Below, piece after piece: positions 4,042-64,000 of a stretch of 64,000 bases of DNA. Where the stretch lies: positions 252,497 through 316,496 of the forward strand of contig CAVZTZ010000003.1 of NCBI GenBank assembly GCA_963778315.1, given 5' to 3'. The notes under the pieces are model-generated. The model was not told the origin of the DNA. It was given only the letters and a program-made list of their open reading frames with translations, and searched no databases. This DNA is from an uncultured Conexibacteraceae bacterium. Lineage in GTDB: Bacteria; Actinomycetota; Thermoleophilia; Solirubrobacterales; Solirubrobacteraceae. A program made the position numbers and the translations under genes. Every line of letters begins with the position of its first letter. Position 1 is the stretch's first letter.

Positions 4042-4094
4042 CCAGGGGGAAGCGGGCATGTCGGGTGTCCCCGTAGGGACACCCCAATAACGAG

Positions 4095-4967: not shown

Positions 4968-5053
4968 TGGACGGAGCCTACCCGTCGGGAATCTGGCGCT
5001 GTCCCTAGAATCCCCGGTCCACTTAGTAGCCAACGAGACAGGATCGAAGACAC

Positions 5054-5314
5054 ATGGCATACGTCATCGCCGAGCCATGCATCGGCACGAAGGACAACTC
5101 CTGCGTGGAGGTGTGCCCCGTCGACTGCATTCACCCGACGCCCGACGAGCCCGATTACGACAAGGTCGAGCAGCTGTACATCGATGCAGAGGAATGCATC
5201 GACTGCGACGCCTGTGTCGAAGCCTGCCCTGTCGACGCGTGCTTTGCCGAGGATCAGTTGCCTGACGAGTGGCAGAAGTACGCCGTGGTCAACGCGGAAT
5301 ACTTCCGCAAGTAG
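5054..5314 (+). CDS. fdxA: 7Fe ferredoxin ([3Fe-4S] + [4Fe-4S])
   Basis: Cys patterns C-x7-C-x3-CP (CIGTKDNSCVEVCP) and CxxCxxCxxxCP (CIDCDACVEACP). The N-terminus MAYVIAEPC is typical of FdxA-type ferredoxins. Confidence 0.85.
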   Translation: MAYVIAEPCIGTKDNSCVEVCPVDCIHPTPDEPDYDKVEQLYIDAEECIDCDACVEACPVDACFAEDQLPDEWQKYAVVNAEYFRK

Positions 5315-5466
5315 CCCGCCGGGCCGACTTACCAGAAAACGCTAAATCGCGTAGACCGTCGCGCTCCTGTGCGCCGCGCGTCTACACTTGCGGAGTTCTT
5401 GCGTGGCGCCGTGGCTGGGTGCGTCACCTCAGCAAGCTGATCGATCGGATTCGAGAGAGGATTGCC

Positions 5467-24876: not shown

Positions 24877-25064
24877 CTCAACCGCGAGAGGACCTGGAAC
24901 GGGAGTGCCAGGCAGTTGGAGCTACGGACGGCTCGACCGAGAGAGAGACGGGCAGCGTCGCCTGGGCGTTTGGTGACGCACCATGTGTGTGACGGGTCCC
25001 TTTTGGGGGCTTGGTACGGGCGTTACCGAATGATTCAGGTTTCCACACCAGAGGGTGCTGGCCC

Positions 25065-28000
25065 GTGCGCGGCCACCTGACCCCAACGCTGGCGGGCAGC
25101 AGCTCCGGCGTGCTCGGCGCTCCGGGTCTCAGCGGCCTCGGGACACGGCGCCAGCGACTGCTGTTCGCGCTCTTTGCGCTCCTCGCGATGGCTGTGCCGT
25201 ACGCGGGCTCGGCGGCCTACGCGATCCGGGCGGCAGTCGATCCGGTTGCGGTCACGACCCCGCTCCCGGCGCTGAACCTCCCGGCTCCGAGCTTCCCAGA
25301 ACTGACCGCGCCGAAGCTGCGCCAGGCGCCGGCGATCCCGACGGTCGCCGAGGTGCGCAGCCACATGCTCAAGGTCAACCACACGACGAGCACGACGACA
25401 CGGCAGACCACAACCTCCACGCAGCGCGTGGTCTCGACGGGCGCCCCGGCGACACAGCAGGTTCCGGTCATCTCGAGCAGCTTCAACATGCTGCCCAAGA
25501 CGCAGAAGACGAGTCACGGCAAGGCCAGCAACCGCTTCGCCAACGCGCCCGTCGTCCATCAGAGCAGCGGCCCGGCCGCGACGCTCGAAAGCGGCTCGAC
25601 CACGCCCCCGCCGATCGTGACTTACCAGGCGCCGCCGGCCAGTGGCACCGAGAGCGCCGATGTGGCGCAGGAGAGCGCCGATGTGGCGCAGGAGAGCGCC
25701 GATGACACGCCCGCCAGCGCCCCGGTCGTTCCGACGGAGACCACGGCGGCACCAGCTACGACGGTTCCTCCGACGGCCACGACACCAGCTCCGACGGCCA
25801 CAACACCGGCCACGACGGCGACGACGCCGGCTGCGGCTCCTGAGACCGCTGCCCCGGCTGAGACGGCACCCTCAAGCTCGACTGGAGCTGGAGGCTCGAC
25901 GGCGACGATCAGCTCACCGGCCGCGGGCTCGATCTCCAGTCCGGCAGACTCCGGTCAGATTGCAACCACGTCCGCTCCGGCGCCCACTCCGCAGACCGTC
26001 ACCGAGACGACCACGCAGACGGTCACCCAGACCGTGACGGTTCCGGTCACGACGACGACCGTGACCGCGGTGAACGTCGACGTGCCGTCGGTGAGGAACA
26101 CACAGGTGCAGTTCGGCGGCGTCAACACGGCGCCGGTGGCAGTGGCCGCCACGCCGCAGCTGACCGCGGCCGTGGGGCCGACGGCGACCCAGTCCGGCAA
26201 CGCCGCGCCCGCAGAGCTTGCGGCGGGCAGTGGCGGCGGTAACGCGGGGACGGGCAGCGACGAATCGACCGGCAGCAGCCCAGCAATGCTGACGACGGCC
26301 GACGCGGCGGCGCCTCGGGCGGCCGAGATCACGGCCCCGAGCGCAGCGCCCACCATCTCCAGTGATCCGGCTTCGGACCCGGGGAGCGGCCGCGGACCCC
26401 CGAGCCCGGCCTCCGAGAGCAATTCTGCGCCCGCCGCCGGGGACGGTAACCCCGTCTCGGTGTCGGTCAACGGAGGTTCGGCCCAGAGCGCCGTCGGCTT
26501 CGGCTCGGTCAGCCAGGGCACGTCGGACACCTTGACCCTGACACTCGCGGACATCGAGGGCGCATCAAGCGGTGTCACGAACCTCCAGGTCTCCTTCCAG
26601 GAGACCACCTCCAACGGCAGCGGCGGCACCCGGAGCGGGGACTTCACGCTGACGGGCCCGGGCAGCAATACGAACATCGGTGACACCGGCGGCACCAGCA
26701 CGCCGACAGCAAGCGCGGCGCTGAGCTTCACGGCGCCAAACAGGTCGGAGAGCAGCTACAGCGGCATCCTCACGATCACGGGAACGCTGTGCAACACCAG
26801 CTCGTCGAACACGCAGGACTGCAGCGGCAGCTTCACTGAGACGATCGATGTCAGCGCCAGCGCGTCGGCATGGAGCTACAGCGACGGCACCCTGACGCTG
26901 AGCGCGAGCTCGCTCAGCAGCGACCTGTTGAGCGGCACCGTTCAGTTCGACTCCGGCGGCTCCGTCGAGCTGATCAGCAACGGCGTCGACGACACGTACA
27001 CGCCGAGCGGCGCCGTCAACGCCGTTGACATCTACGGCGGGACCGGTGGCGCCAACAATCTGACGATCACGGGATCCCTGCCGGCGAACGTGGTCTACAC
27101 CGGTGGGGGAACGAGCAACACGCTCAGCCTGTCGGTCGCAGGCGGCGAAGCAGCGGTCTGGGCCGTCAGCGGCGATCAGGCGGGCACGTTCAGCGGGATC
27201 ATCCCGCAGTCCGGCAGCAAGCCGGCGAGCGCAGATCTCTACGGGATCACGTTCTCCGCGGTCAGCGCCGTGCAGGTCGATGGCGGCGGTCAGCCGCTGG
27301 TGATCACCGGCGTGCCGCAGGACACGCTGACCTCCGTCCCCGGCACCCTGACACTCGATGGAACGACGGTCGCCTACGCGAACGTCAGCCAGGTGGCGGT
27401 GCTCAACCAGCTCGGCGCCGCGAGCATCACCGCGGGCGCCTCCCCCGCCACTGTCACCTCCACGCCCGTCGGCTCGCTACTCAGCACCCTCGACACCGGC
27501 AAGCTGTTTCCGGCAGGCGTCGGCGCAGCAACGACGATCTCTGATGTCGGCGGCGGTGGAGCGATCCCAGTGGCGCTGGTCGCACCAGTCGACAGCTTCC
27601 AGATCAACGGCACGGCCGTGACGCTGAGCCAGGCGGTTGGCGTCAGCGTCGTCGGCCAGTCGACCGAACTGACCCAGGTCCAGCTCGGGTCTGTCGCGAT
27701 GGGGACGGTGTCAGGCGGGCTTCAGCTGGCGCTGACCAACACGGTCGGTGGGAGCAATGGGGTGAGCTCCGTCAACGTCACGCTGATCCAGCCAGGCAGC
27801 ACCTTTGCCGGCACCGCCGGATCTGACTCGCTCAGCGCTGTCGCCGTCAGTCTCACCCTGACGGGAGGTGTCGTCGACCTCACGCTGAAGTTCACCGCGC
27901 CCCTGACCCAGGCGTTGTACTCGGCGACTCTGAAGATCACGGGAACCGCCCTTGGCGCCGGCTTCACCGAGGAGATCCCGATTCTCGCCTCGGCCTCGGC

Positions 28001-31000
28001 GTGGTCCTACAGCGCCGGCACGCTGAGCCTCGCCGCCGGGTTCCTATCAACGGTCGGTGGCGTCCTCGACCAGACGCTCACCCTGGCGAGCGCCAGTGAC
28101 ATCTCGCTGACGGGGGCGAGCGGCTACGCCGACACATTCATCGCACCGTCGGGGAGCACGGACGCAGTGACGACGGTGCTCCTCACCGGCGGCACGGCGG
28201 GCAACAATGATCTGACCGTGATCGCGCCCGGCGCGCTGCCGGTTGCAGTGAGCTATACCGGTCACGGCAACGACGTCCTCAGCGTGCCGGTCGCCTCGAG
28301 CGAGCTCGGCGTGCTCAGCGCGCAGCCGGGCGGTGGCTGGCAGATCGGCGGCTACGGCACGGTCGCTGACGCCCGTCAGCTGTCCTTCAGCGGCGTCAGC
28401 ACGCTTGAGGTCGCCGGTGGTGGCGCCGGGCTGGTCATCTCCGGGCCGAGCTCAGGGTTCACGACGGCCGCGGACACGGCGACAAGCGCGACCGCCGGAA
28501 CCGTCGCGATCCCGGGCCTGACCATCGGCTACACAGGTACCGACGCGGTCATCCTGCTCGGCAGCGTCGGCACCGCCACCGTCTCCGGCTCGAGCGGTAC
28601 CGAGGCAACTGACGCACTCTTCACCGAGACGGTCGATCCGAGCGAGCTCAGTGTCCCCACCTCCGTCCAGCAGGCGGCGCTCCAGCCCGTGTCGGCGACG
28701 ACCCCGTTGACCGCTGTCGGTGGCGCCGGGTTCCCTGCGTTCGCCCTCGAGCCGCCGTCGGGCAGCCTGACGTTCGACGGCGCGACGTCTGTGCCGACAC
28801 TGACCGGCCCGCTCGCGGTGTCGGGCTCGGGCGGCTCGACGGGCAACGTCGGCTTCGGTGGCGTCACCAGCGGCACCACGGCCACGGACATCGTCACGCT
28901 GACCGATGCGGTCGGCGGCGAGATCACGAATCTCGTCGCGGCGCTCGGCAACGACACCGGCACCGGCTTCGCGATCCTGACGGGCCTCTCGGCGACCACC
29001 GTCAATTCCGACGGCCAGGTGACGCTGACGATCACCTTCAAGCCGGGCACCGGCAGTGAGACGGCGAGCCTCACCGTGCGCGGCGACCAGGCTGGTGGCG
29101 GCACGTTCAGCGAGACGATTTTGCTCAGCGGCCACCCGACCGCCTGGAGCTACAACTCGGGCACGCTGAGCCTGAACGCGACCGCGCTCCCCTCAGGCGT
29201 GATCGACGGCACGCTCTCACTCGTGTCGGGCGGCGCGATCACCTATACCGACTCGAGCGGCGCGGATGCGTTCACGCCGACGGTGGCGACGCCGGTCACC
29301 ACGGTCGAGATCACCGGCGCGGGCGGTACCGCGGCCAACACGCTCACGATCCTGACGGCCGGACAGCTGCCCGAGAACGTCGTCTTCAACGGCAGCTCGG
29401 ACAAGGACACAGTCAACGTGCCGGTTGCGGACGACGAGGCGGCAAGCGTCACCCTGACCTCCGCGTACACGGGATCGGTGACCGGCGTGACGCCGTCATC
29501 CGGCGCCGGAACGGTCGACGCGCACAAGCTGACGTTCTCCGGGGTCTCGACACTGAACGTCACCGGCGGCACAAAGCAGCTGGTCGTCGGCGGCACGGAC
29601 TATCTCGGCGGTCTCAGCGCCACCCCGACCGGATCGTCCAGCGGCACCTTGCAGCTGACCGATGCCAGCAGCGGCTTCACAACGACGATCGGCTTCAGCG
29701 ATGTCAGCCAGGCGGTCGTCGTCAACGACGTCAACGACGAAACGGTGACGAGCGCGGGCTCCGCCGCGACAACGACAGTCGCAGGCGCGATCGCAACGGT
29801 GCTGTCCGGCGTGACGCTGCCATCGGATCTGACCTCAACGAGCTCACTGACCGGCGTCACTGCAACCGGCGAGGTGCCGTTTGCTTTCTCGCTCGCGACC
29901 GAGACGCTGACGATCGACGGGCAGACGAGCTCGGTCGGCAGCAGCAATGGCGGGCTCCTGAGCTTCGTGCAAAAGGCGATCACAAGCGGCGTCGCGCAGC
30001 TCACCGGCGATGTCCTCAACCTCGGAACTGTCACGGTCAACTCGCCCGTGACCGACACGCTGTCGCTCGGCGCAGTCAGCGGAGCGCTGCAGACCCTGCT
30101 CGAGACGGTCAGCTCGCTCGGCAGTCTCGTGTTCAGCAATACCAGCGGCTTCACGGCTCGGCTCGGCACCGGCACCCTCGACAGCGGGCTGCCGCTCAAC
30201 ATCACCTTCACGCCGACCGCATCCGAGGAGGGCACCACGGTCACCAGCCTGCTGACGCTGACCGGCACGATCCCGCTCGTCCAGCAGGTCTTCAGCAGCA
30301 CACTGACGCTCGTCGCCACGGTCACGAGCTGGGCCTTCGACACAACGACCGGAGCGCTGAGCCTCAGCACGAACAACAGCGACCTCGGCTCGAGCCCCGG
30401 GACGCTGACGTTTGCCAGCGACGGAGCCATCACCCTCGGCGACGCCGCCGGTCTCGTCGACAGCTTCGTCGCCAGCGGCAGTGAGACGGTCAAGTCGATC
30501 ACGGTCGACGCGAGCAGCGCCGCGAACGGCGTCTTCTCGATCGTCGCGGACGGCGCCCTGCCGGCCAACCTCACCTTCAAGGGCGACCGGTCGACACTGA
30601 CGGGGCCGGCCTTCGCCAGCGCCGACACCGCCCTGTACACGCTGACGGGCACCGACACGACCGGCACCGGCGGCAATACCATCTCGATCCTCGGCAGCGC
30701 CAGCGGCGCGACCGAGGTCTTGTTCAGCGGCGTCTCGAGCCTGGTCGGCGCGGCCGACTCCACCAACCAGTTCGTGTTCGGATCGGGTGCCTTCGCCAGC
30801 GGCGCGACCGGGATCCCGGGCGCACTCGACGGTGGTCTCGGCAGCGTCTCTCAGGTGCTCGTCGACGCACCCACAAGCGGCGACTACGGCCTTGTCGACG
30901 CGAGCCTTGTCAATGGGGTCGGGTCGCTCGGGGTCAACGAGGACCCGCTCAGCCTCAGCAACGTCAGCTCGCTCGACGTGCTTGGGACCGCGACGTGCGC

Positions 31001-34000
31001 GGTGATCGACTCGACCGCGAGCGACTGCAGCGGCTCGAGCGGCAGCTCAGGATCAGGCAGCACCCCCGGCAGCGCCGTCTCGATCGTCACCGCCAGCGCG
31101 CTGGGACTCGCGAGCAGCACGCTCTCCGGTGCGACCGACCTGGATGTGATCGGCGAGGCGACGAGCGCGATCGCGCTGCTGCAGCCGGTTTCGCTGCTCG
31201 TCAACGACGTGGCCGCCGACCTCGGGATCACGTTGCCCGGCGGCACCACCCAGGGGCTTGACTTCGGGACCGTCACGCTCGGATCGACGACGCCCAGCTC
31301 GTTGATCAGCTCGGTCGCGTCACTGGTCAGCGGTGCCACCCTCGGGATCCTCACGATCACGCTCGGGTCGGCGACGGAGAACGGCTCGACGCTGGGCACC
31401 AATCCGTTCAAGGTGCTCGGCGGTGACTGTGGCGGCAGCAACCCGGCATGCACGACGACCGGCAGCGGCCAGGCGACGTCGGTCCAGTTGGACCCGACGG
31501 ACCTGACCGGCGACGGCGTGCTGTCCTCCTCGCTGACGCTCACGGCGACGATCGGAACGACTCAGTACTCGATCACGGTTCCGCTCAGCGCGATCGTCAC
31601 GGCCTGGTCGCTGACCGGCACCACCCTGAACTTCTTCGACGGACTGCAGCAGGCAGCGGGCGCGACCGACACGTTGACGTTCAACCCCAACGGCAGCATC
31701 TCGCTGGCCAACGCCGGGACCTCGTTCGTCGATTCCTTCCTGGCGTCGTCGGGCCAGACAGTCGATCAGATCGACATCAGCGGTTCGGGGTCGAGCTCAG
31801 GCCAGATCCTCAACATCCAGTCCGCTGGATCGCTCCCAGAGAACCTGAGCGTGACCGACGTCGGGAACCTGATCACGCCGGCGTTCGGCGCCGGCCAGAC
31901 GCTCGTCGCCGACCTCGGCAACAGCACCAGTGGCAACACGATCAGCGCCCTCACCAACGGTGTCCAGGACGCGACGTCGATCGCGTTCACCGATGTGAGC
32001 ACGCTCACGACCGCCGCGGAGAGTACTGCGAACGTAGTCATCGAAGACACGGTGCCCGGCCTGTCGAGCATCGTCGGCGGCCTCGAGAGCGTCACCAACG
32101 TTGTGCTGACGACGCTCACCAGTCTCACCGAGACGCTGGTCGGCGACGTCCTCAACGATCTCGACGGGCTGACTCTGTCCGGGCTCACGAGTCTGATCGA
32201 CCCGGTGCCGATGACGAACGTCGAGATCGACGGAGCAACGGACGCACCCGACACCTTCCTTGTCACGTCGACGAACCTGACGAACATCCTCAGCTCGGTG
32301 ACGGCTGACCTCAGCCCTCTGACGAACCTGCTCTACAAGATCCCGGCGGTCAAGTCGGTGGTCAGCAGCGCAGAGGCACTCGCGACGCTCAACCTGATCG
32401 CGGTGGCCGATGTTGGCCCCAAGCCGCTGGCGATGGTGTTCGCGCCTCCGACTCAGTCACTGACGATCAACGGCGAGGGCGGTCTCGATCTGACGGCGAT
32501 CGTCGGTGACATCGCGCTGCCGGGTGCGAACTTCACGGTCACCAGCGGCGCGATCGTCGTGTTGGGCACCGATGTCAGCACCGGCGTCAGCAACATGGCA
32601 TCGGTCCTGCCGAGCTCGATCGCGACGCCGCTCGAGGCGATCAACTCCCTCCTCAGCCTGATCCCGCAGCTGACGACGATCGACACCACCTGCGGCACCT
32701 CCTGCTCCACCGACGGCGCGATCACGCTCAACGCCGACGGGACGAACATCGGGTTGCAGCTCGACCTCGCGCCGCTGCTGTCCGGTCTCGGCTCCGTTCC
32801 CGGAGTCGACCTGTTGAGCTCGGTGTCGGCCGATCTGGACGTGTCCGCCGGACTGTTGGCGATCGCCGGCGCCACGATCAAGGGGGGCAGCGTCGATCTC
32901 GTTGCCAGCTCGACCCCGACCTCGGCAGGTCCGGCCGCCGCCGTGACGACCGACGTGACGGCGTCCCTCGCCGACGTCGTCCTGCTGTCCGACAGCATCG
33001 AGGCGACAGGCGCCGACAGCGCCGCGCCGGCGGCGAACGCGTCGACGCCGCAGGATGCTGGCACCGCGGGGAGCTCGCCGCCAAGCTGCGGCACCGCTCT
33101 GTGCGTGATCGCCAACTCCGCCCCGACCGTGACGGCGGACTCGACCAGCGCGAACCTGCTCCCGGGGGCCGACGCCGCCGTCGCGACCGACATCGTCGCC
33201 TCGGTCGCAGACATCCTGGTGACGGGCTCCGATCTGATCGCCAAGACAGGCTCCGTCGACGTGCTCGCGAACAATGCGCCGGACGTCACCGGGACGGCCG
33301 CCTCGAGCGGGACCGTCGCTGGCGCGTCCGTGGCCGCGACGATCCTCGTCGAGACGACGGACGACGACGTGCTGCTGAGCACGCTCAGCGGCACCAACGT
33401 CGACGTCGCGGCCGGGTCGGGCGGGTCGGTGACGGCGACCGCGACCGCGAACGCCGGCGGTACCGCCGGCAGCAACGGCGCGCTGCAGACCGCCGTTCAG
33501 TCCGCGCTCTCGCTCGTGACGGCACAGCTTGGCACCGGCAGCCTGGCGCTGCCGGCAGCGGCAGCGGCGCTCGGCGTCTCCGTGCTCGTCAACAACACCG
33601 AGGCGTCGATCGACGGTGGCACGGTGACGGCGACGGGCACGGTCGGCCTCGCCGCCACCGGGGGAACAAGCAGCCAGGCGACCGGTGACGCGTCCCAGGC
33701 CGACGACACGACGACGAGCGCCGCGGTCGGCGTCGGCGTCGCGCTCGACCTCGCGCTGGTGACGACCGATGCGTCCCTCGGCGTCAACCCCGACATCACG
33801 GCGCCGAGCGGCCTGATGGTGTCGGCCGAGGTTCCCGCATCCGCGATGTTCGGCGCTGCCGCCAACTCAGGTGCGGGAGACGCTGATCTCGCCGGCGACG
33901 GCGCGCTGGCGGCGAGCGTGGCGGTCGTGCTGACGACCGCCGGCATCGGGACCGAGGGCGTTCCGGGCGACCCGAACGTCAACAGCGCGAACACGACGGT

Positions 34001-37000
34001 GGACGCGAGCAACGCCAGCTCCAGCACGGCGACGGCCAGCGCAATCAACTCGAGCGCGCAGCTCGTGGGCGTTGGGCCGTCGGCAGCGCTGAACGTCGGC
34101 TTCGAGACGACCACAGCCGAGATCCCGGCCGGAAGCTCGATCGAGAACGCGAACTCGCTCGATATGGATGCGACCGACACACCCTCGCTGACCACCACGG
34201 CCGACGGCGGCGCAAGCGGCGAGGCAGCGGTCGGAGCGGCGACAGCGGTCACGGTCGCCGTCGTCACGACGACCGCACAGCTCGGCACCGGCACCACGCT
34301 GACGCTCGCCGGCAACCTCGATCTGACCGCCGACAACGACCCGTCGCAGACCACCACCGCGACCGGGGACGCCAGCAGCGGGACGGCGGGCGCGGCGATC
34401 GCGGTCGCTCTGACGCTCGGCGTCGACAGCGCAAACGTGACGAGCGACCGTGACGTCACCGCCGGCGGGACCGTGACGTTCAAGGCGGACGGCACGCCGA
34501 CCGCGCAGACGACGGCGACGGCCGGCGCCGCCGGCGGACCGAGCAGCGGCGGTGTGGCGGCACTCGTCGGCGATGTGCAGACGGTCGCAGGCGACGTGCT
34601 GAACGCACTGCCGGGAACGCTCCCGCTGCCGACGTCCGAGATTCCATCGGTGCTCTCGACCGTCGAGTCGATCGACGGCGGCAACGACCTCGGCGCGGCG
34701 GCCGCGATCGCCGCCAACATCCTGCTCAGCACGGTCACAGCCACGATCCCGGCGGGCACCACGATCGATGCGACGAGCGGCGCGGTGATCGACAGCGCCA
34801 CCGGAGCCGCGACGGCCGGCGCGACCGCGACCGGGACCGCCGGCGCGTCTGTCGGTGACAGCGTCGCCGTCGCCGTCAACCTACCGATCATCACCGAGGC
34901 CGCGACCGGCACCGGCATCGTGAACTCGCCGAGCCTGAGCGTGTGCGCCGGCACAGCCGCGTGCTCCGGCACTGGTAGCGCGCATCAGCTGTCCGCCTCC
35001 GCGACCTCCGGTACGGTCGCGAGCGCCGCTGGAGGGGCCGAGGCGATCGCGCTGAACGTCTCCGTCGTGACGACCGTTGCCACGCTCGTGACCGGCGCCC
35101 GCGGCCCGCCGCCGTCAGCCCCCGAATCAATCACGGTGTCGGCGGCAGCCGCCACCAAGGCGGCGGCCACAGCGACCACGCAGAGCGAGAACGGCGGCTC
35201 GGCGATCCTCGGTCTCGGCGCCTCACTTGCAGTGTCGCTCGCAGCGAACACGACCGTCGCCCTCGTTACCGGCACGGACCCACTCGAAAGCTTCGGCGGC
35301 GCCATCGACGTCAACGCCACGAGCGCGCCGAGCACCTCGGCAATTGCAACGTCGGGTGCCAGCGGCACCGCCGGCGTCGCCGGCGGAGCAGCCGTCACGG
35401 TTGCGCTCAACACAACGATCGCGGCGCTCTCAAGCGGAGCGACCAGCGCCGGCGGCGACATCACCGTCACCGCCTCGGAGACACCGTCAAGCACCAGCAG
35501 CGCGACGGACGCGGTCGCCGGCTCGGTGGGCATCGGCGCGGCGTTGGCCACGACCCTGGCCGCGGACACCACTCTGGCGAGCACACTCGGAACGATCGAC
35601 ACCGGTACGAGCGGCGGCACCCTGATGGTCCAGGCGACCGACACGGCCCAGAGCACCGCGACCCCCACGAGCAGCGCCACGGCCACGGCCGGTGCCGACG
35701 GCAACAGCGCATGCTCCGCCACGACGAAGGTCGCATGTGACGCGCTGTCTGCGCTGACCTCGATCGTCAACACCGCCACCTCCGTCTTCTCGTCGCTGCC
35801 GTCGGCGAAGTCGCTGCCGTTGACGTCGATCTCCGGGCTCGTGTCGATCCCGTCCGTGCCGACGCTGCCGACGCTGCCGTCGATGTCATCGCTGCCGAAC
35901 GGAATCGGCGCCGGTGCAGCGATCGCGCTCGACGTGCCCGTCGTGACGACCACGGCGCTCGTCGGTGTCGGCACGGTCACCACGGGCAGCGCCATGACCA
36001 CCGTCAACGCGGACGCCTCAGGGCGCAAGGACAGTTCGTCGGCAACGGGAACCACTGCAGGCGGCGACGCGGTCGGCGCCGGCTTGGCGATCGCCGTCAC
36101 GGCCGCGATCGACGCGACGACCGCAGTCGTCGACGCCACGACGGTGACCGCCGGGTCGCTGACCGTCGCGGCCGCGCACAACGGCGGCGAGCAGACCTCC
36201 AACTTCAGCAGCACCGCGACCTCGGGCGACACCGGCCTGACGGACGCCGCCGGCGCGGTCGCGATCACGATCACGACCGTCACCACGATCGCGTCGATCC
36301 CGACCGCCTCCGTCACCAGCACTGGGCCGGTGGATGTGACGGCCGGCTCGGCACCGACGGCCGGCTCACTTGCGCAGCCCGCAAGCGGCGGCGACGGGCT
36401 GTCGCTCGCGTTCACGCTCGCGAACAACGTCACCCTCGCCGAGACCGGCGCCACGATCACCGGATCCGGGATCAACGTCAACGTCACCGCCAGCGGCGAC
36501 TACCAGACGACGTCGAACGCAACGGCGGGCGCGACCGACAGCGGCCTGTCGGTGGCGGCGGCGCTCGCGGTGTCCCTGGCAGTGAACACGACCGCGTCGG
36601 CGCTGATCGGCGGAACGATCGGCACGCCGGGAACGCCGGTCGGCACGGTCACGGTCACCGCGGCGCCCACAGCGAACACCACGGCGACCGCTCTCGGCGT
36701 CAGCAGCGGCGTCGGGCTCGTCGGCCCGATCGCGGTCAACATCGCAATCGACACGACGCTGGCGACGTCAGCGGCGAACGTCTACGCGAACGAGCTCGAT
36801 GTGTCCGCGATCGGCTCACCGACCAGCGCGGCGGACGCCACCGCCGCTCCGAACGGGATCGGCTCCACCGGCGACACCACCGCCGACTCCCTGATCGACA
36901 GCTGGCTCGCCAGCGCAACCAACGAGATCGGCTCGCTGCCGACGACGCTGCCCGGGACCGATCTGCTCAAGACGGCGACCAGCGCGACACCCACGGCACT

Positions 37001-52000: not shown

Positions 52001-55000
52001 CTTCATCGGGTTCATCCCGACCGGCTCCAGCAACTACACGTCGCAGACGACAACGGTGTCCAAGGCGCCGATCGTCGCCAACCCGGGCGGACGGTACTTC
52101 TACACGGCAGGTTCTGTCAGCGCGGGCCAGGATCCGTACCAGTTCACGCAGACGATCTCCGCCGACTTCGGTCCGAACGTCACGAAGAGCCAGAGGAGCT
52201 GGTGCACGTACAGCTGGGGCAGCCTGTGCTGGACGCACGAGTACCAGAAGATCACCGACGCGACCGACGTCTACACGGTCACCGATGCCGACTCGATGAG
52301 CGCGGGCCAGTCGATCCCGATTGACTTCCTCGGAGCGAACGCGGGGAGCATCTCGATCGACTCGAGCGCCGGCCTGATCGTGAACGGGGCGATCGACAAC
52401 CCCACCGGCTCGACCTCGATCGACACCGCCGATGGGACCGTCACCGAAGGCCCGCAGGGTCAGCAGATCGGTGGCCGGGTGCTGACGCTGAACACCGCGG
52501 ATGCGATCGGGAGCTCGACCGCGCCATTGCCGATCGAGGTCAATGCGGTCTCGTACGTCGGCAGCAACAAGGAGCCGTACGTCACCGCGCCAAGCCAGCC
52601 GTGCTACCCGTCCGGCACCGGCCAGAACACGGTCCTGACGCAGCTCAACACGCCGTGCTACGCGGATACGACCGACGACAGCGCGACGCTCTCCTGGGGG
52701 TTGACGGTCCACCTCGGCACCGACTACACGGGCGGCGACGGCACCCAGGGCCTCGTCTACCGGTACGTGGGCACGTGCACGAAGGCCAACGCGGCCGCCG
52801 ACAACTGCGTCGGCGACACCGTGTCGCTCTCCGGTGAGGATTTCTCCGATGCGTCCGACTGGGACGTCGAGACCGCCACCTCCGACTCGGTGATCCAGTT
52901 CGTCGATTCGACCGGCGCCGCCACGTATTGGCAGTACCTCGGCCAGGCGACCGAGATGAACCTCAGCACGCTGTGCCTGACCGGCTGCTCGAACTACCTG
53001 CAGGGCAACACCTCGGTGTGGGCGCCGGTCACCAGCGACGCGGGCCTCAACGCAGTTGCCGGCCAGGGCGGCATCTACCTCGACGACATCAACGGGTCGC
53101 TTCCGATCCAGCAGGTGATCGCCGAGAACGGCGGCAATGTCACGCTCAGCTCCGAGAGCAACATCACGGTCGCGCAGGGCGCCGCGCCAAGCGGCGTGGC
53201 GCAAATGGGGCAGGTGACGGGCAACCAGATCACGCTGCTTGCCGGCGGTCTGATCCCGAACGCGTCGGGCAATTCGCCCAAGCCGGGAGTCGTCGGTGCC
53301 GATGGAGCGCCGCTGCTGCTCGATTCAGGCGGCACCCAGCAGTACGGCGACGTGACCATCCGCGCCGGCGGCGACGTCAACGTCGAGGAGGACCAGGGCA
53401 ACCTGTGGCTCTACCTGCTGAAGGCCACGGGCGGCAACGCGTGGGTCAAGGTCGACAACGGCAACCTCTACGACGCGAACACCGCAACGACCCCGAACCC
53501 GGTCACATACGCTCAGCTCGAGCAGAGCACCTACAGCCAGCTCGGACTCGAGAACCCGAACGAGGTGACGGATCAGGAGCTGCAGTTCGAGGCGACCGAA
53601 GAGCAGCAATATGCGCAGCTGTGGACCTATTTCGATGACAACTCGAGCTGCACCGTCGGCACCGCCAGCACCTGTAGCTTCGCGCTGACCTCCGCCCAGC
53701 AGACCTACTACGAGGGCTACTACTGCGCTCTGGAGCTGGAGGCAGCGAAGGACACGAGCGGCCGGTGCAGCGACGTGCAGACGGCAGTCAATGGAGACCT
53801 GGCGACGATCACGAAGGCCGATCAGGTGCAATTCGCCACGCTCGCCAGCCAGTTCAACGCATACTTCCAGCGCCTCGGCGAGACGTTCCCGACCTCCGAG
53901 ACCCGCTCCGCGACCTACGGCGGCATCCTCAGCACGCCAGGTATCTACACCGACGGTGATCTCGCAAGCGGTGCTATCGCCTTCTCATCGCAGGGCGCGA
54001 CGTTCACGGGCGCCGACGTCGGCGGCAAGATCACGATCGCTGGGACCACATACACCGTCGCCGCTGTTCTCGACAGCCACGACGTGCTGCTGGCCGAGGC
54101 CGCGACGACCGGCTCCGGGGAGTCGTTCTCGTACACGACGGGCACGGCCGACGGCACGACATACGCGGCCGGCACGACGCTGACGATCTCCGGTACGGGC
54201 CAGAGCGCAACCTTCACCACTGCGAACGTCGGCGAGAGCGTGACGATCACAAGCAGCGTGGGCACGTTCTCGGACACGATCGCGTCGGTCAGCACGAATG
54301 GCGCTGACGCGGTCACGCTCGGCACGCCGGTTCCGGTCGGCACCGGGGCAACCGTCACGTACCAGGGGATCCTCACCGACGGCGTCGCGACGACGACCGG
54401 CTCAGGCGCGACCACGGTCACCACGCTCACGTCGCAGACGGCGCACTTCACAGCTCTCGACACCGGCCAGACGATCGTGATCGCCGGCAACGCGTACACG
54501 ATCGCGGGCGTCGACAGCACGACCCAGGTCACCCTCGACCAGCCCGCGTCGTCCGCTGACCCGGGCGACCCGAGCGGCAGCGGCCTGGCGTTCGAGGTGC
54601 TGCTGAGCTACTCCGATGGGGCGGTGACCGGCACCGGCACCGTGCTCGACTCTGCTTCGACCACGTTCACATCGTCCGACATCGGCAAGAGCGTCACCGT
54701 CGGCGGCAACGAGGACACGATCTCCGGCTACATCGACGCACACGACATTGAGCTGACCAACACAGCGGGGTCGATCCCCGACACCACCGGCCAGACCGTT
54801 GCGATCAGCGGCAACGATGGGACGGTCACCGCGGTCACGACGGTCAGCTCGGCGACGGCCAACTTCGTGGCGCCGACGAGCACATCGAGCGGTGACCTCG
54901 GCGCCGTGATCACCTTCGGCACCGCCTCGACATACGAGATCACGTCCGTGATCAGCCCCACCGAGGTCGAGGTACAGCCGACCGGGCAGACGCTGGCGTC

Positions 55001-58000
55001 GAGCGGCAGCGGTCAGACGTTCAGCCTCACCGTTCCGGGCACCGGCTCGAATAGCACGGTCCAGTCCGACCTGACCTCGACCTGCCCGACGACCGCCGAC
55101 TGCGCGACGTTCGCGGCCTCCGACGTCGGTCAGCAGGTCACCCTCTCGGATGGCAGCAAGTGGCAGATCACGAGCATCATCTCCGCGCACGAGGCCGAGA
55201 TCTCAGAGCTCGTCGAGGCGGCCGGAAACACCCCGACCGCGCTCGGCGCGACCAGCTTCACCTACAACCCGAGCTTCCTCGACGGGCAGATCAGCAGCCA
55301 GACCGTGACCACGGGCGCCAGCACCACGACCGAGACGATCCTGACCTCCGCCAGCGCGGGCTTCGGGTCGGCTGACGTCGGCCAGTCGATTGACGTCAAC
55401 GGCACGAGCAACACGATCGAGCAGGTGCTCAGCGCGACTGAGGTGGTGCTCGGCACGAGCATGGCAGCGGCAACCGGTCGTCCGTTCTCCTACATGCCGC
55501 AGTTCACCTACCAGCTGAGCACGGCTCAGATCGAGCAGATCGAGAGTGGGGTCAAGGTGTGGACTCCGGCGCAGCTTCAGAACCTGCTCGGCGCCGGCCT
55601 GCTCAACCCGGTCAGCTCCACCGTCGCCGCGGACGGCGTGTCCGTGATCGACGCCGAGAACATCACGCTGCTGACGTGCGACAACGCCGGGACCGACACC
55701 GGCTCGACGTGCCCGCAGGTAACGGGCTCGTCGGTTGGTGCTGTCGGCCAGCTGACCGGCACGACGACGATCCCGCTCGACGGCACGACGTTCACCTCCG
55801 CCGACAACGTGGCGCTGAACTCGGCGGAGCGGTCCGACATCACCTACGTCGCTGGCGCCGCGCTCGCCGACGGTACGAACACGGCGCTGAGCGTCGACTT
55901 CAGCGCGACCACCGCGGCACTCGGGACGATCACGGTGCCGGTCGACACCGGCCTGACCGGCCTGACCGACAACGAGATCCTGCGGGTCGTCGGCGTTACC
56001 GACGGTTCCGCGAGCGGCCTGGCGTACTACGAGTTCACCGGCTGGAGCGGCAGCGGCGCCGACAGCACCACATGCAACACGAACTCGGGCGCCGGCTGCA
56101 ACGTGCTCGACGTCAAGGTGCCGTCGTATGAGAGCGAGCAGCTGCAGAGCCAGGCCGGCGTCACCGTGTCGATCGTCCCGGTCACGAACACGGCCGTGAC
56201 AGCCGAAGTGTCCTTCACCTCGCCGACGACGATCGTCAACGACAGCAACACCGGCTGGGGCGTGATCAGTGCAGGCATGCAGGTCACGATCTCCGGGAAC
56301 ACGAGCAACAGCACCGACCCGACCGACTCCAGCGGTCCGGCCTACTACACGGTCGACCAGGTCACCGGCAACACGATCACCCTCGATGCGTGCATCACCG
56401 GCCCATGCGCCAGCGGTCAGACGTCCGACGTGAACCTGAGCACCGAGACGGATGATTCGAACATCACGATCACGCCGATCGTGACCGACCCGGCATTTGC
56501 GGCCGACACGACGGTGACGGCAGACGTCAACGGCGTCAAGACCCAGGTCAGCGGCACCCAGACGCTACCCGTGCAGTTCATCAACAGCGGCTTTGATCAG
56601 AGCGGGGTCCGCCAGCCGGATCAGATCGTGCTCACCAACGGCGAGAACTGGAGCGACTACGGGTACGCCGTCGGCGATCTGCTCGAGGTGACGGGCTCGG
56701 ACCTCGACAGCACCGGCTCCTACCTGCCCTACGAGATCGTCGGCGTCAGCGGCGCAACGCTCGAGGTCGCGGTTGGCGACTCGCTTGCACCTGAACTCGA
56801 CCCAACCGGCATCACGTTCACGCTCGGCTACTCGCCCGTCACGGTCCAGATCGACGTCAGCCAGGTTCAGCCGATGTGGATCGACGCCACCACCGAAACG
56901 GGCGGCGCGGGCACGTTGGACGTCACGGCCTCGAGCGATGTGTTCATCGACTCGGCGAGCTCGATCGCGATCGGCCGCGTCAGCACCCCCGGGCAGACCC
57001 GACTGAAGAGCGGCGGCGCGCTGACGAACGCCGACTGCACGCCAAGCTCGAGCGCCACGATCGACAACTGCCAGACCGCGCCGGCCGCCGCCGACACGAA
57101 CCTCAGCACCGGGGATCTGATCCTCGAGGCGGGCGGCGGTTCGATCGGGACCGAGCAGAATCCGGTGTTCACCGATCCATATACGGCCGGCTCGACGCTG
57201 ACCGTCCGGGCGTCGGACAGCATCTGGATCGATAACAGCAACGCGGCCGGTACCGCCGGCGACCTGAAGCTGCAGTCCGCATACGCGGCGGGCACGTCGC
57301 CGCAGGGCGCCACGGACCCGCTCGCCGGCTACGTCCACCTCCAGGCAGACGGGGCGATCTACTCCCCGATCGCAACCGAGTTCACGAAGATCGACGCGTC
57401 CGATGTCGAGCTCGATGCGGGCGTCGCCTGCACACAGTCACAGGCACAGGCGGGCGGGTGCTCGATCGGTCAGAGCGGCAACCCGCTCGAGATCCTCGCG
57501 ACCGATGTGACCGCACTCGCGACCGGGTCGGTCTGGCTGACGGGCACGGACCTGACCGGGACGCTGACCACATTGCAGATCCGGCGCATCGCATCGCTCT
57601 ACGGCGATGTCTCGCTGGCCGGCATGCAGCTCAAGGTTGATCCGGCCGACGGTGCGGTCGCGCAGAACGCGACGCTCGCCGGCAGCGATCCGGACCTGGA
57701 TCCGCTGGACGAGAGCGAGATCTTCCAGAGCGAGTTCGCCGGAACCACCGACGAGTCGAACGCGACGATCAACGTCGTCGGCAACAACATCTCGCTGACC
57801 GCGAGCACCGGCGGCATCGGCCTGACCGCCGATCCGATCGGGATCGAATCCGACCGCGCGCTGACCTGCTCCAACGACGCCCAGAACGGCATCACCGTGG
57901 CGAGCGGGTGCGGGACGCTGACCGTCTCCGCAGCAGACGACGTCTTCATCGATCAGCCGAGCCGCGACCTGTATCTCAACACGGTCAGCGTCTCCGCCCC

Positions 58001-61000
58001 GGGACAGGTGGCCTTCATCACCGCTGTGTCCGCATCGATCTACAACGGCAACCCGGCATCGGGGTCCAACGTCGAGTCCGGCGAGGTCTGGCTGTCTGCC
58101 AAGCAGAACGTGGGCACCACCACCGACCCGTTGACGACCAGCACCGGCGACATCCAGTCGGCGGCCGGCGGATACACCGAGATTCACAACAGCGGCCAGG
58201 TCTCGATCCAGTGCGTCAGCCCCGGCGCCGACGGACCGGGTTCGCCGACGTCCAGCACGTGTGCGCCCGGCACCATCGGCATCCAGTCGGGTCAGAGCAT
58301 TACGTTCACGAACACGGACAGCTCCGGAAATGCGTGCACCACGGGTGCGTCGACGGGCAACAGCTGCGTCACGCTGACCCAGAACATCGTCTCAACCAAC
58401 GGCTCGGTGACGATCAGCTCCCAGAACCAGGCGGGCGAGGACAACGCCGTCACCGTGCTGCCGGGGATCCAGGTCACGGGCGCGACAGGAATCTCGATCA
58501 CGGCGGGCGGCGATGTCACGATCGGCGACGGCGGCGGCCTGACCGCGACGACCGGTGGCATCTCGATCGTCGGTGGCACGCACGGCGCCGGCGACGTCTC
58601 GATCACCGACGGCACCGTGACCGCGACCGGCGCCGGTGGTCAGATCGCGGTCCAGACGGCTGGAAACGTCACCTTCACCGGCTCGACCCTCACGGCGGAC
58701 GGTCCGATCACGGTCACCACCGGAACCAACAGCGCCACCACCGCGACCGGCCTCGGCGCCGACGGAGCGGGATACGTGCTGGTCGGCGGGTCAACCGTTG
58801 ACGCCACCGGAACCGGGGCAATGATCACGATCACAGCCGCGGGCAACGTCGGCGCCGGCGAAGACGCCACGGGGACCACGGATCCGGCCATCGTCAAGGC
58901 GTCTGGCCCGATCGCGATCACCGCCGGTACCGGTGGCACCGGTGGTCTGGTTGTGAAGGACTCGATGGTGACGGCGACCGGCGCGAGCGGGTCGATCACC
59001 GGGACCACGACCGGCGGCGACATCCAGCTTCTCGACGGCACTGCCGTGACGGCCGCGACCTACGTCACGCTGATGGCGGGCCACGGGATCTACGTCCAGG
59101 ATCCGACGACCGTCACCGCCCAGGATGGCAACGTCGAGATGACCGCCCACGCCGGCTCGATCACGCTCGGCCCGAACGCCGAGGTCACCGCCTCCGCGGA
59201 CGTCGACGGGCAGGCGAGCGCGGCCATCTACGTCGAGCAGAACTCCGAGGTGCTCGCCGGTCTGGCGGTGACGCTGACCGCAATCAGCGGTGACGTCGAC
59301 GTTGACCAGTCGTCGTCCGTCGCCGCACTCGACGGTTCGGTCCAGCTGAGTGCCGGCGCGGACATCGTGGTCGACGCCGCAAGCACGGTCAACGCGACGA
59401 GTGGCGACGTCATCGGCTCGGCGAGCGGCTACATCACGATCGGCGACGGCGTCGCCGGCACGGCGACGGTGAACAGCACGGGCGGCAGCGTGAAGCTGAC
59501 GGCCGGCACCACCCTGACCGTGCACGACACCGCCACGATCACCGCCTCACTGGACATCGACGCCACCGCCGGCGGCGATCTGACCGTCGAGAGCACCGCC
59601 GTCGTCACCGCGCAGCGCAACGTGACGCTGTTCGCAGGCAGCGGCGCCGGCACCGGTGACGCGCTGATCGGATACGCACCGTTCCCGAGCGGCGACACGA
59701 CGGCCAACACCGGCAGCCCCGCCCAGATCGACGCGACCGGAACGGCACCGGCGCTGCCCGGCGGCCGCACGGGCGTCGTCACGATCGAAGCAGGCGGCAA
59801 CGTCACGATGTGGGCCGGTTCGACCACGCAGAACCCCGACGGAACCGTCGCAACGACGAACCACACGACCGCCAGCACCGAGATCGACATCTACGGAGAC
59901 GTCAACAATCTCGATGCCAGCGGCAGCCAGATCACGTTGTCGGGCACGCTGAGCGCTCCGCTGATCCAGGCGTTCGGGAACACACACGACGACACGATCA
60001 CCTTCGAGCAGACCCAGCTGAACGGCCGCACGCGGGCGTGGGGCTCGAATACGCCGACCGCGACGGGCCAGCTCGCGTGCACGCCGACCGCGGCCAACTC
60101 CAACCCGTGCCCGTCCGGGAACAACCTCTTCATCGTCGACCAGCTCGCGACGATGACGAACATCGATGCCGGTACCACGCTGATGCTCGACGGTCAGTCC
60201 GGGACCAACGTGTACGACATCAACACCCACGGAAGCCAGGCCACCCAGACCGCCAACTACGAGATCAACGTGCTGCCGAGCGGCGCGCCTGGCACCGGCA
60301 CCAACACGCTCAACGTCTACGGCGCGAACAACACACCCGTGGCGGGCGACCCGTACAACGATCTGTTCCTGCTGCGCTCCGAGACCGCGATCGCCAACGA
60401 GACGCTGCCGAGCATCTTTGACGGGACCGGCAACAACGCCGGAACGGGCGCCTCTGCCGCGCCGTACTCGGCCGGTCCGGCATTCGTCGCGGTACTCGGC
60501 ACCACCTACAACAACGCCGCGCCGAGCAACGCGACGAGCACCGCCACCGCCGGCGCGCTCAACTCGAGCGGCACGTTCAACGTCGAGATGGTCAATTACG
60601 ACAGCAATGTCAGCGCGCTGAACGTGATCGGCAAGGGCGGCAACGACTACTTCGCCGTCGACGACAACAGCGCGATCACGACACTCGACGCCGGCACCGG
60701 CGACGGCACCTTCCAGATCGGCCAGGTGTACGGCTTGCAGCGGACCGACTCCGCGAGCCAGGGCAACCTCACCCCGGACGACCAATTCGCGTTCGCGACC
60801 GTGGCGACCACCGACGGCTGGTTGAGCCGCGGCACGAGCATGCCGCTGACCGCGGAGGGCGGCAACAACGACACGTTCTACGTCTACTCGAACCAGGCCC
60901 CCGTCACGCTCGAGGGCGGGATCGGCAACAACAGCTTCAACGTGCAGGGCTTCGCGCTCGCGCAGACGAGCGGCGGCAACCTCGTCCTGCCCGCGGGCTG

Positions 61001-64000: not shown

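Follow-up and report, generated by a model that had tools for sequence, protein, structure and literature searches.

FHA of Bordetella and LktA of Fusobacterium necrophorum are filamentous exoproteins of two-partner secretion (TPS), also called the type Vb secretion system, and the giant RTX adhesins of the type I secretion system (T1SS) have near-identical tandem repeats as their building blocks and lack a signal peptide at the N-terminus. LEPR-XLL is an annotation name, and LEPR-XLL proteins have no experimental characterisation. Giant bacterial genes encode mainly surface or adhesion proteins and nonribosomal peptide synthetases or polyketide synthases (PMC11573180; bioRxiv 10.1101/2023.11.21.568195), and bacterial proteins of more than 5,000 amino acids (aa), mostly of these same kinds, number in the thousands (PMC11573180). 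The giant proteins of Omnitrophota reach 85,804 aa, and proteins of more than 30,000 aa also occur in Actinobacteria (bioRxiv 10.1101/2023.11.21.568195). Fibrillar adhesins have been given an operational definition that combines stalk repeats, an adhesive domain and an anchor or secretion signal (PMC8286594). Here we analyse a giant gene in a stretch of 64,000 nt (hereafter the window) of contig CAVZTZ010000003.1, from an uncultured Conexibacteraceae bacterium. The gene is cut by the 3' edge of the window. We consider it probable that a single intact gene occupies the region and that its product is a giant, Sec-exported protein, a fibrillar adhesin or a component of the matrix, which would form a fibre on the surface of a host that is probably a monoderm (single-membrane) bacterium.

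A six-frame stop-codon scan of the window shows that one frame of the plus strand has no stop from position 24993 to the end:

24993..64000, plus strand: whole open frame of 13,002 codons, unterminated at the window end (stop scan; G+C content at third codon positions, GC3)

The runner-up open stretch in the window has only 901 codons, and a stop-free run of 13,002 codons is expected by chance with a probability of about 3e-115 at the base composition of the window (69% G+C). The G+C content at codon positions 1, 2 and 3 of the giant frame is 0.60, 0.58 and 0.89 overall, and none of the 13 consecutive 3-kb blocks has a GC3 outside the range 0.85-0.93. Given that GC3 is uniformly high and the open frame is long, it is clear that this frame is the coding frame from end to end. 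A preliminary description of this DNA, made from the letters alone, had claimed that the frame is open from 24993 to the window end and holds at least 12,978 codons from a GTG start. Both claims stand, and the count from GTG 25065 to 63998 is exactly 12,978 codons. The description had also asked whether GC3 or codon statistics would favour another frame; this check was run, and GC3 supports the giant frame in all 13 blocks.

The dominant gene of the window is missing from the list of open reading frames (ORFs) because it is unterminated and the list holds only terminated ORFs, as had been pointed out in the same description. The largest ORF that is listed in the region of the giant gene has 790 aa and lies on the minus strand. 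In most of the overlapping ORFs, codon position 1 is the GC-rich one and Arg makes up 16-29% of the residues, and two antisense "mirror" frames use the third positions of the sense frame and contain 2-3% Arg, with Arg, Pro, Ala and Gly together at 38-41%. From the codon-position G+C, the Arg content and the composition of the mirror frames, it follows that the ORFs that overlap the giant gene are all wrong-frame artefacts, in agreement with the earlier view of them. On the minus strand at 33497-36499, two antisense ORFs of about 500 aa have a GC3 of 0.89, which comes from third positions common with the sense frame. GC3 alone would miscall these two ORFs as coding, a situation typical of genes rich in Ala, Gly, Thr and Val in high-GC DNA.

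The G+C content of the giant gene equals that of the flanking chromosomal genes. The longest pair of DNA repeats within it measures 123 nt with 76% identity, and tandem arrays are limited to two, both with 21-nt units, at 25650-25704 and 25771-25831. Given that long near-identical repeats are absent, a misassembly by repeat-driven collapse or expansion is unlikely. The region could also be no functional gene at all: the assembly may be chimeric or expanded here, or the frame may belong to a decaying pseudogene and stay open by chance in GC-rich DNA. In line with such an origin, the source appears to be a contig of a metagenome-assembled genome (MAG), two neighbouring genes look frameshifted, and many relatives in MAGs are broken by frameshifts. 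Nonetheless, we regard it as highly improbable, given the length of the stop-free run and its chance probability, the uniform GC3, the short and diverged repeats, and the fact that aa 7972-13002 are collinear at the protein level with independent genomes.

The 5' end of the gene carries the following features:

24847..24876, plus strand: promoter-like TTGACA-18 nt-TATGTT, about 190 nt 5' of the start codon (consensus match only)

25050..25067, plus strand: Shine-Dalgarno-like AGAGGG (25050-25055) and GTG start codon (25065-25067; sequence)

25065..25223, plus strand: signal-peptide-like N-terminus, product aa 1-53, or aa 25-77 of the open frame (sequence)

The promoter-like element is the single sigma-70-like match in 23700-25300, where shuffled sequences give an expectation of 0. 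A gap of 9 nt separates AGAGGG from GTG 25065, which is the first well-placed start; an earlier TTG at 25011 was rejected as it has no properly spaced Shine-Dalgarno sequence. An Rfam scan found no riboswitch or other Rfam element in the leader or elsewhere in the window. The product starts with MRGHLTPTLAGSSSGVLGAPGLSGLGTRRQR-LLFALFALLAMAV-PYAGSAAYA followed by IRA, in which a long n-region ending in RRQR, an h-region LLFALFALLAMAV with a 13-residue hydrophobic core and a c-region PYAGSAAYA can be distinguished, with a candidate cleavage site between AYA and I. With these three regions and an A-x-A site, the segment looks like a Sec signal peptide, although it could also be an uncleaved signal-anchor. 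It is the sole N-terminal hydrophobic segment of its type and the single transmembrane-like (TM-like) segment of the product. Export through the Tat system, which the T-R-R-Q-R motif might bring to mind, was set aside, given the poor match to the Tat consensus and the implausibility of this route for a 1.3-MDa protein. A GTG preceded by a Shine-Dalgarno sequence and a signal-like N-terminus, both proposed in the preliminary description, are therefore retained.

Counted from the GTG, the product has at least 12,978 aa, about 1.26 MDa and a pI of 4.05; Lys and Arg together make up 1.4% of it, and Thr, Ala, Gly and Ser together 51%. The earlier count of at least eight architecturally distinct repeat regions can be raised, as about ten distinct regions are separable. 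After the signal-like segment these are, with amino-acid numbers counted from the opening of the frame at 24993 and not from GTG 25065:

25224..26417, plus strand: low-complexity spacer of about 400 aa, rich in Pro, Thr, Ala and Ser (aa ~80-475; composition)

26418..32252, plus strand: tandem array of five diverged modules, each about 370-425 aa long (aa 476-2420; self-BLAST, motif, alignment)

32850..46440, plus strand: LktA/FHA-type filament repeats of about 50 aa, about 4,500 aa in about 47 copies (aa ~2620-7150; NCBIfam, hidden Markov model (HMM))

46680..48300, plus strand: aromatic hairpin-like repeats G-L/V-Y-x-W/Y ... W, about 540 aa (aa 7230-7770; sequence inspection)

48270..49770, plus strand: second, short filament-repeat block rich in Ala, Gly and Thr (aa 7760-7900; iterated HMM copies at aa 7760-7897)

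49770..53790, plus strand: about 1,340 aa without repeats and with a higher content of Tyr, Trp and Cys (aa 8260-9600; self-BLAST)

53790..56940, plus strand: array of small beta-barrel-like domains of about 70-90 aa (aa 9600-10650; self-BLAST, HMM)

56670..59940, plus strand: second beta-strand repeat block before the core (aa 10560-11650; homology to the relative P0032)

59940..63998, plus strand: conserved family core, cut by the window end (aa 11650-13002; homologues, AlphaFold2 (AF2))

Pfam and NCBIfam were scanned over thirteen tiles of 1,000 aa, and the PDB sequence search was made with the whole protein. Across the 13 tiles nothing scored above cut-off except LktA_tand_53, with ASH, Phage_attach and FlgD_tudor all below threshold, and the PDB sequence search returned nothing at E<=0.01. 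This bears out the earlier statement that no characterised family covers the domain order. The motifs LEPR (as the regular expression LE[PD]R), LPxT[GAN] and HExxH do not occur in the 13,002 aa, GGxGxD occurs only twice, and RTX repeats of PF00353 have no match in any tile of the window part.

The first 500 aa consist of 18% Ala, 15% Thr, 12% Pro and 11% Ser, and both 21-nt tandem arrays fall within the Pro/Thr-rich spacer. The five modules that follow are 25-36% identical to each other, and each has an immunoglobulin (Ig)/ASH-like start and a kept (S/T)(A/S)W(S/A)(Y/F/L) landmark; the match to ASH PF15780 is weak (E 6e-5, below cut-off). Matches to NF012206 LktA_tand_53 occur in tiles 4 and 6-9 and exceed the cut-off only in tile 7 (65.4 versus 50 bits). 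An iterated HMM finds 50 copies of the filament repeat at aa 2623-7897, self-BLAST shows super-repeats of about 450 aa with 31-59% identity at aa 3500-5000, and the filament-repeat region also has linkers rich in Pro, Leu and Ser. Neither Pfam nor NCBIfam has a match in the aromatic repeats, and their identification as YD/RHS repeats was rejected as unsupported by any Pfam match.

Self-BLAST detects no internal repeats in aa 8260-9600, and this region is collinear only with a locus in a Solirubrobacteraceae MAG (L001), at 33% identity. In a clustered database of 5.8 billion proteins it has a single weak match, and aa 480-1290 of the N-terminal modules have no homologue there; for this reason, no deep alignment is possible for those parts. 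An AF2 model of N-terminal module 1 with five paralogues reached a predicted local distance difference test score (pLDDT) of 49 and is unreliable. The small barrels share the motif F-T-x-x-D-V/I-G-x-x-I/V-T-V/I-x-G. An iterated HMM places six copies at aa 9670-10173 and two more outside the array, at aa 7812 and 12429. The array, in which the matches to Phage_attach and FlgD_tudor lie below threshold, is homologous to the protein P0033. The second beta-strand block (17% Gly, 16% Thr, 13% Ala) is 41% identical to residues 1-923 of P0032, and its relatives are named "beta strand repeat-containing protein".

The core (aa 11650-13002) has no match in Pfam, NCBIfam or the PDB sequences. Its last 1,353 aa have 30 homologues in the clustered 5.8-billion protein database (best E 1.4e-287), all of them fragments of less than 2,400 aa, several of which continue into RTX (PF00353) repeats. 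An exhaustive HMMER search of 1.84 billion representative proteins gave 1,228 matches at E<=1e-3 and 252 at E<=1e-30. Annotated records of family members carry the names "LEPR-XLL domain-containing protein", "calcium-binding protein", "DUF4347 domain-containing protein" and "hypothetical proteins". When one genome per GTDB species was scanned, at least 599 pattern matches were obtained, and 384 of those listed were confirmed, so that the core is present in at least 384 species genomes or loci from many phyla. Among the matches listed, the carriers include Solirubrobacterales, Microbacterium, Sinomonas and Pseudarthrobacter in Actinomycetota, Bradyrhizobium, Burkholderiales and Marinobacterium in Proteobacteria, and Cyanobacteria (Nostoc), Planctomycetota, Chloroflexota, Dormibacterota and further phyla; the best match among the listed species representatives is 47% identical. 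This homology places the last 1,350-2,450 aa in a family of giant proteins that is widespread and uncharacterised, and the product is no orphan. No publication that characterises the core family was found in the literature, where "LEPR-XLL" is mentioned only in passing, in two papers.

In the window protein 11,650 aa precede the core, and in the relatives the core almost always lies in ORFs of more than 6,500 aa. The ORF is open through the entire 10-kb upstream flank in 70 of the 78 related loci, and for this reason the core can be taken as a hallmark of giant ORFs. Past the equivalent of the window end, the ORF of the relatives runs on for a median of about 2,265 aa. The 5.8-billion database has no match longer than 2,400 aa, although the genomic ORFs exceed 6,500 aa. 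Its entries P0002, P0006-P0009, P0015 and P0019 are pieces of giant genes; towards their ends the reading slips into an out-of-frame translation rich in Arg, Pro and Ala, a sign of probable frameshift errors in MAG assemblies.

An AF2 model of aa 11650-12849, computed from the 30-sequence alignment, is all-beta, with a mean pLDDT of 77.4 and a predicted template-modelling score (pTM) of 0.80. It begins with about 500 residues of short strands with G/D-rich motifs that resemble RTX nonapeptides (e.g., GGDGSDTVNV) and continues into longer-stranded sandwich domains; tandem Ig-like domains and small barrel domains follow the short-strand part. Foldseek against the PDB matches this model to the Ig-like strings of CfaB pilins, PrgB, the integrin alpha "legs" and the Cna collagen adhesin, with E-values from 2.5e-8 to 1e-3 and low global TM-scores, as expected for multi-domain chains.

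The C-terminus of the giant protein and the genes downstream lie beyond the window, and the closest relatives, which are MAGs of Solirubrobacterales/Thermoleophilia, indicate what may follow. P0032, an N-terminally truncated protein of 3,220 aa from an ENA metagenome scaffold, aligns to aa 10560-13002 of the window protein. The two are 59% identical over aligned aa 11366-13002, and the core match by HMMER has 67% identity. L001 is collinear with the window protein from aa 7972 to the end. Past the equivalent of the window end, P0032 continues for 696 aa and P0001 for 552 aa. By this comparison, probably about 550-700 aa remain beyond the window, which would bring the full length to about 13,500-13,700 aa. 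The tail of P0032 contains a Big_13 Ig domain and a helical end.

A secreted, internally duplicated protein of about 450 aa, with the motif WLPHP..A.WTY.WSDS.Y, is encoded directly 3' of the giant gene in eight loci (the contig of P0032 and seven others). These are mostly labelled as Solirubrobacterales/Thermoleophilia MAGs, two being labelled only Actinomycetota:

L084, 9619-11648: protein of about 450 aa

L005, 21344-23490: protein of about 450 aa

L001, 18211-20448: protein of about 450 aa

L002, 17160-19329: protein of about 450 aa

L006, 22583-23938: protein of about 450 aa

L011, 22565-23925: protein of about 450 aa

L021, 23060-24334: protein of about 450 aa

L051, 22997-24369: protein of about 450 aa

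The gene is often accompanied by genes for secreted or lipoprotein-like proteins of about 215 and 265 aa. The protein of about 450 aa has no sequence relative in the PDB and no curated family, with a weak match to DUF3108_like. The relatives in Microbacterium, Pseudarthrobacter and Sinomonas do not share this gene and have unrelated housekeeping genes downstream. The best matches and the downstream gene, taken with the G+C content of 69%, suggest a host close to Thermoleophilia/Solirubrobacterales. In the closest relatives the protein probably works with the giant protein, and its conservation suggests that it is encoded downstream of the window gene as well. The core and this protein might even be parts of an unrecognised Sec-dependent system for the assembly or anchoring of megadalton surface fibres in monoderm Actinomycetota, evolutionarily linked to the LEPR-XLL/HlyD/site-2-protease loci of diderm bacteria, which we put forward as a speculative idea that is unlikely to be right as a whole.

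The tails also bear on whether the product is a contact-dependent delivery device of the polymorphic-toxin type, in which an FHA/LktA-like filament would present a variable C-terminal effector encoded beyond the window. The LktA/FHA-type repeats would fit such a device, as would the highly variable C-terminal ends of the family, some of which carry a matrixin-like HExxH module. Nonetheless, the tails across the family carry no toxin domains but modules of types usual for surface proteins (Big_13, RTX, DUF7507, matrixin-like and FIMAH). In the closest relatives P0032, L005, L007 and L020 they end in Big_13 Ig and helical/FIMAH-like domains and are likewise free of toxin domains. The product has no TPS domain and no TpsB partner is found among the upstream genes, and the conserved downstream genes encode secreted proteins of about 215 and 450 aa and not small cytoplasmic, immunity-like proteins. 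Toxin delivery is for these reasons quite improbable.

The matrixin-like zinc-protease module of the family (...AAGWGW.ID....DLL.V..HE.GH.LGL.H) is found at 3-1013 of L081 and in the tails of L008, L010, L026 and L083. It is C-terminal in several family members, lies near the N-terminus in the Rhodococcus copy (L081) and is absent from the window protein; it appears to be mobile within the family. L081 is the 54.9-kb plasmid NZ_CP110618.1 of Rhodococcus antarcticus, more than half of which is taken up by a broken family gene of about 30 kb (record positions 8508-38452). In the annotation this gene appears as two hypothetical proteins, of 6,747 and 2,189 aa, and the gap that separates them is unannotated.

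Several observations point to a surface fibre: the signal-like segment, the spacer, about 50 LktA-type repeats, the all-beta core and the Foldseek matches to Ig strings of adhesins and pilins. The HlyD and site-2-protease neighbours of a LEPR-XLL homologue provide an export context, and both the divergent Big_1/Invasin_D3 neighbour of the window gene and the tails of the family are of the surface type. For such a fibre, the N-terminal segment would direct the protein to Sec, either as a signal peptide or as a signal-anchor, the cell wall would be crossed by the Pro/Thr-rich spacer, about 400 aa long, and the remainder would fold outside the cell as a thin fibre of beta-solenoid and Ig domains, a few hundred nm long, with the conserved core placed distally on a very long stalk whose beta-solenoid and Ig-like modules have diverged. 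Its length would be roughly 0.3-0.5 µm, from the generic dimensions of 0.48 nm per solenoid coil of about 20-25 residues and about 4 nm per Ig domain of 100 residues. The G/D-rich RTX-like motifs of the core probably bind calcium and may aid folding, and the fibre may attach to surfaces, polymers or other cells, or scaffold a matrix.

The product could instead be a structural component of the envelope or matrix, such as a sheath, an S-layer-like coat or a biofilm scaffold, that forms a bulk extracellular layer and is no specific adhesin. Its extreme acidity, very low Lys and Arg content and Thr/Ser-rich composition suited to glycosylation are compatible with such a role, as are the lack of an identifiable ligand-binding domain (Pfam and NCBIfam, window part) and the fact that free-living taxa of soil and water keep the giant gene in single copy. 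One polypeptide of 1.3 MDa is nonetheless a costly route to a bulk layer; the arrangement of signal, spacer, long stalk and conserved distal core is that of a fibrillar adhesin, and the Foldseek matches are Ig strings of adhesins and pilins. We therefore consider a bulk layer unlikely, and the surface fibre with adhesive or matrix function remains our preferred reading. Several points weigh against the latter. The signal peptide was judged by eye and export was inferred from sequence only, adhesion is inferred at the level of the class, and the confident structural model covers only about 9% of the protein. Within the window part, from which the C-terminus is missing, Pfam and NCBIfam recognise no adhesive (ligand-binding) domain, no cell-wall anchor (LPxTG, SLH etc.) is detected, and no calcium-binding Pfam repeat is present.

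The genes upstream are ordinary chromosomal ones, which encode a citrate synthase, an amidase, an NmrA-like protein, AlkA, a UvrD/PD-(D/E)XK helicase-nuclease, an HD-domain protein and an OYE-family reductase, and the divergently transcribed neighbour is a surface-type Big_1/Invasin_D3 protein. Domain searches of the upstream genes in the window revealed no TpsB, no ABC, MFP or TolC component and no sortase, which agrees with the earlier remark that neither a TpsB-type nor a T1SS-type partner lies upstream. The divergent neighbour (21913-24640, minus strand) looks like one secreted protein split by a frameshift, with the junction in G/C-rich runs. A Gly-rich ORF with a signal peptide (23901 to about 24640) overlaps an ORF with four Big_1/Invasin_D3 repeats (21913-23823), of which the first 100 codons or so read as Ala/Pro/Arg-rich nonsense. 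On the plus strand, the N-terminal domain of a UvrD-type helicase (14880-15641) overlaps, in a different frame, an AddA/AddB-like part with UvrD_C and PD-(D/E)XK nuclease domains (15569-18022). Either the two ORFs are separate genes, or a frameshift, from a sequencing error or in a pseudogene, divides one gene. Another protein that is probably secreted, of 724 aa, is encoded at 5269-7443 (plus strand) and has fibronectin-III-like, purple-acid-phosphatase-N and PhoD_N-like domains.

ORF tracks and protein catalogues built from fragments systematically miss giant ORFs that are unterminated, and families of megadalton surface proteins stay invisible as a result. With no frameshift in 39 kb, the gene described here is a well-preserved example, from the actinobacteria, of a family found in soil, water and the rhizosphere in hundreds of species. 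For the core of this family, about 1,350 aa, neither a curated domain model nor a solved structure exists. It is probable that such proteins dominate the contacts that little-studied, mostly uncultured bacteria make with surfaces and with other cells. Their synthesis is a large metabolic investment, which takes no less than 39 kb of DNA and, for every molecule, about 13,000 residues. The locus has descriptive value, in that a domain model of the core could be built from it and its structure predicted tile by tile, and it brings no conceptual surprise.

Among the described systems, the core is held in common with the LEPR-XLL protein WP_114295156.1 of Pseudosulfitobacter sp. DSM 107133 (12,918 aa), of which aa 9056-10685 correspond to aa 11652-12956 of the window protein with 29% identity (E 7e-86 and 4e-33). 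The two proteins are of similar size and carry the core near the C-terminal end, and WP_114295156.1 has one match to the LktA-type repeat. The N-terminal 10,000 aa or so are, however, unrelated. The LEPR-x-LL motif at the N-terminus of WP_114295156.1 and of P0170 is absent from the window protein (NCBIfam tile 1; LE[PD]R search), which has a Sec-type signal-like N-terminus instead, and the C-terminal HExxH module of the LEPR-XLL protein is not found in the window part. LEPR-XLL proteins are known from Proteobacteria and Planctomycetota. In the plasmid locus of Pseudosulfitobacter (L082), the giant gene is followed by genes for an HlyD-family adaptor, a site-2 protease, SapC and a prepilin peptidase; no HlyD or site-2-protease gene lies upstream of the window gene, and in L082 these genes lie downstream.

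With FHA and LktA, the window protein shares the repeats of the LktA_tand_53 type, in about 50 copies, which imply a long beta-helical filament. It differs from them in having no TPS domain (no Pfam match to Haemagg_act at E<=0.1 in the first 1,000 aa), in a host that is probably monoderm, and in being four times longer with many other types of module. No gene for TpsB (POTRA/ShlB) was found among the upstream genes of the window or downstream of the actinobacterial relatives. The RTX/T1SS adhesins (RTX proteins are reviewed in PMC3034196) LapA, SiiE and the ice-binding MpIBP of Marinomonas (about 1.5 MDa) resemble the window protein in megadalton size, strong acidity and Ig-like strings. G/D-rich RTX-like motifs are common to these adhesins and the window core, and the tails of its relatives carry true RTX repeats, with weak matches in the actinobacterial ones. 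The window protein nonetheless has highly diverged repeats (25-59% identity), a signal-like N-terminus and no PF00353 match in the window. Ebh of S. aureus, and Giant1-5 of Apilactobacillus kunkeei (PMC12863079), have a Sec signal, a very long beta-rich or Ig-like stalk and a monoderm host, as the window protein probably does too; no sequence homology to them was detected, the window protein is 1.3 to 4 times longer, and its window part has no YSIRK, LPxTG or C-terminal TM anchor.

The giant proteins of the Omnitrophota type are similar in their beta-helix filament regions and in that most of their length is invisible to domain databases, but they exceed 30,000 aa and have many TM regions and SecA_DEAD, whereas the window protein has about 13-14 thousand aa, no SecA match and one TM-like segment. 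In this light, the place among the largest bacterial proteins that the preliminary description had given to the product holds in so far as 13-14 thousand aa is large; it is far from a record, given the homologue of 12,918 aa and the reported proteins of more than 30,000 aa. Compared with fibrillar adhesins, the stalk is present, in the form of five modules, about 50 filament repeats, small-domain repeats and an Ig-like string; the adhesive domain was not found by Pfam or NCBIfam in the window part, and the N-terminal hydrophobic segment could serve as an uncleaved surface anchor. Judged by its sequence, the window protein lacks the defining features of the LEPR-XLL naming, of TPS exoproteins, of RTX/T1SS adhesins and of the Omnitrophota-type giants. 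By homology it belongs to an existing, widespread and unnamed family, in which it stands out for its size, its intactness and the little of it that is seen by curated models.

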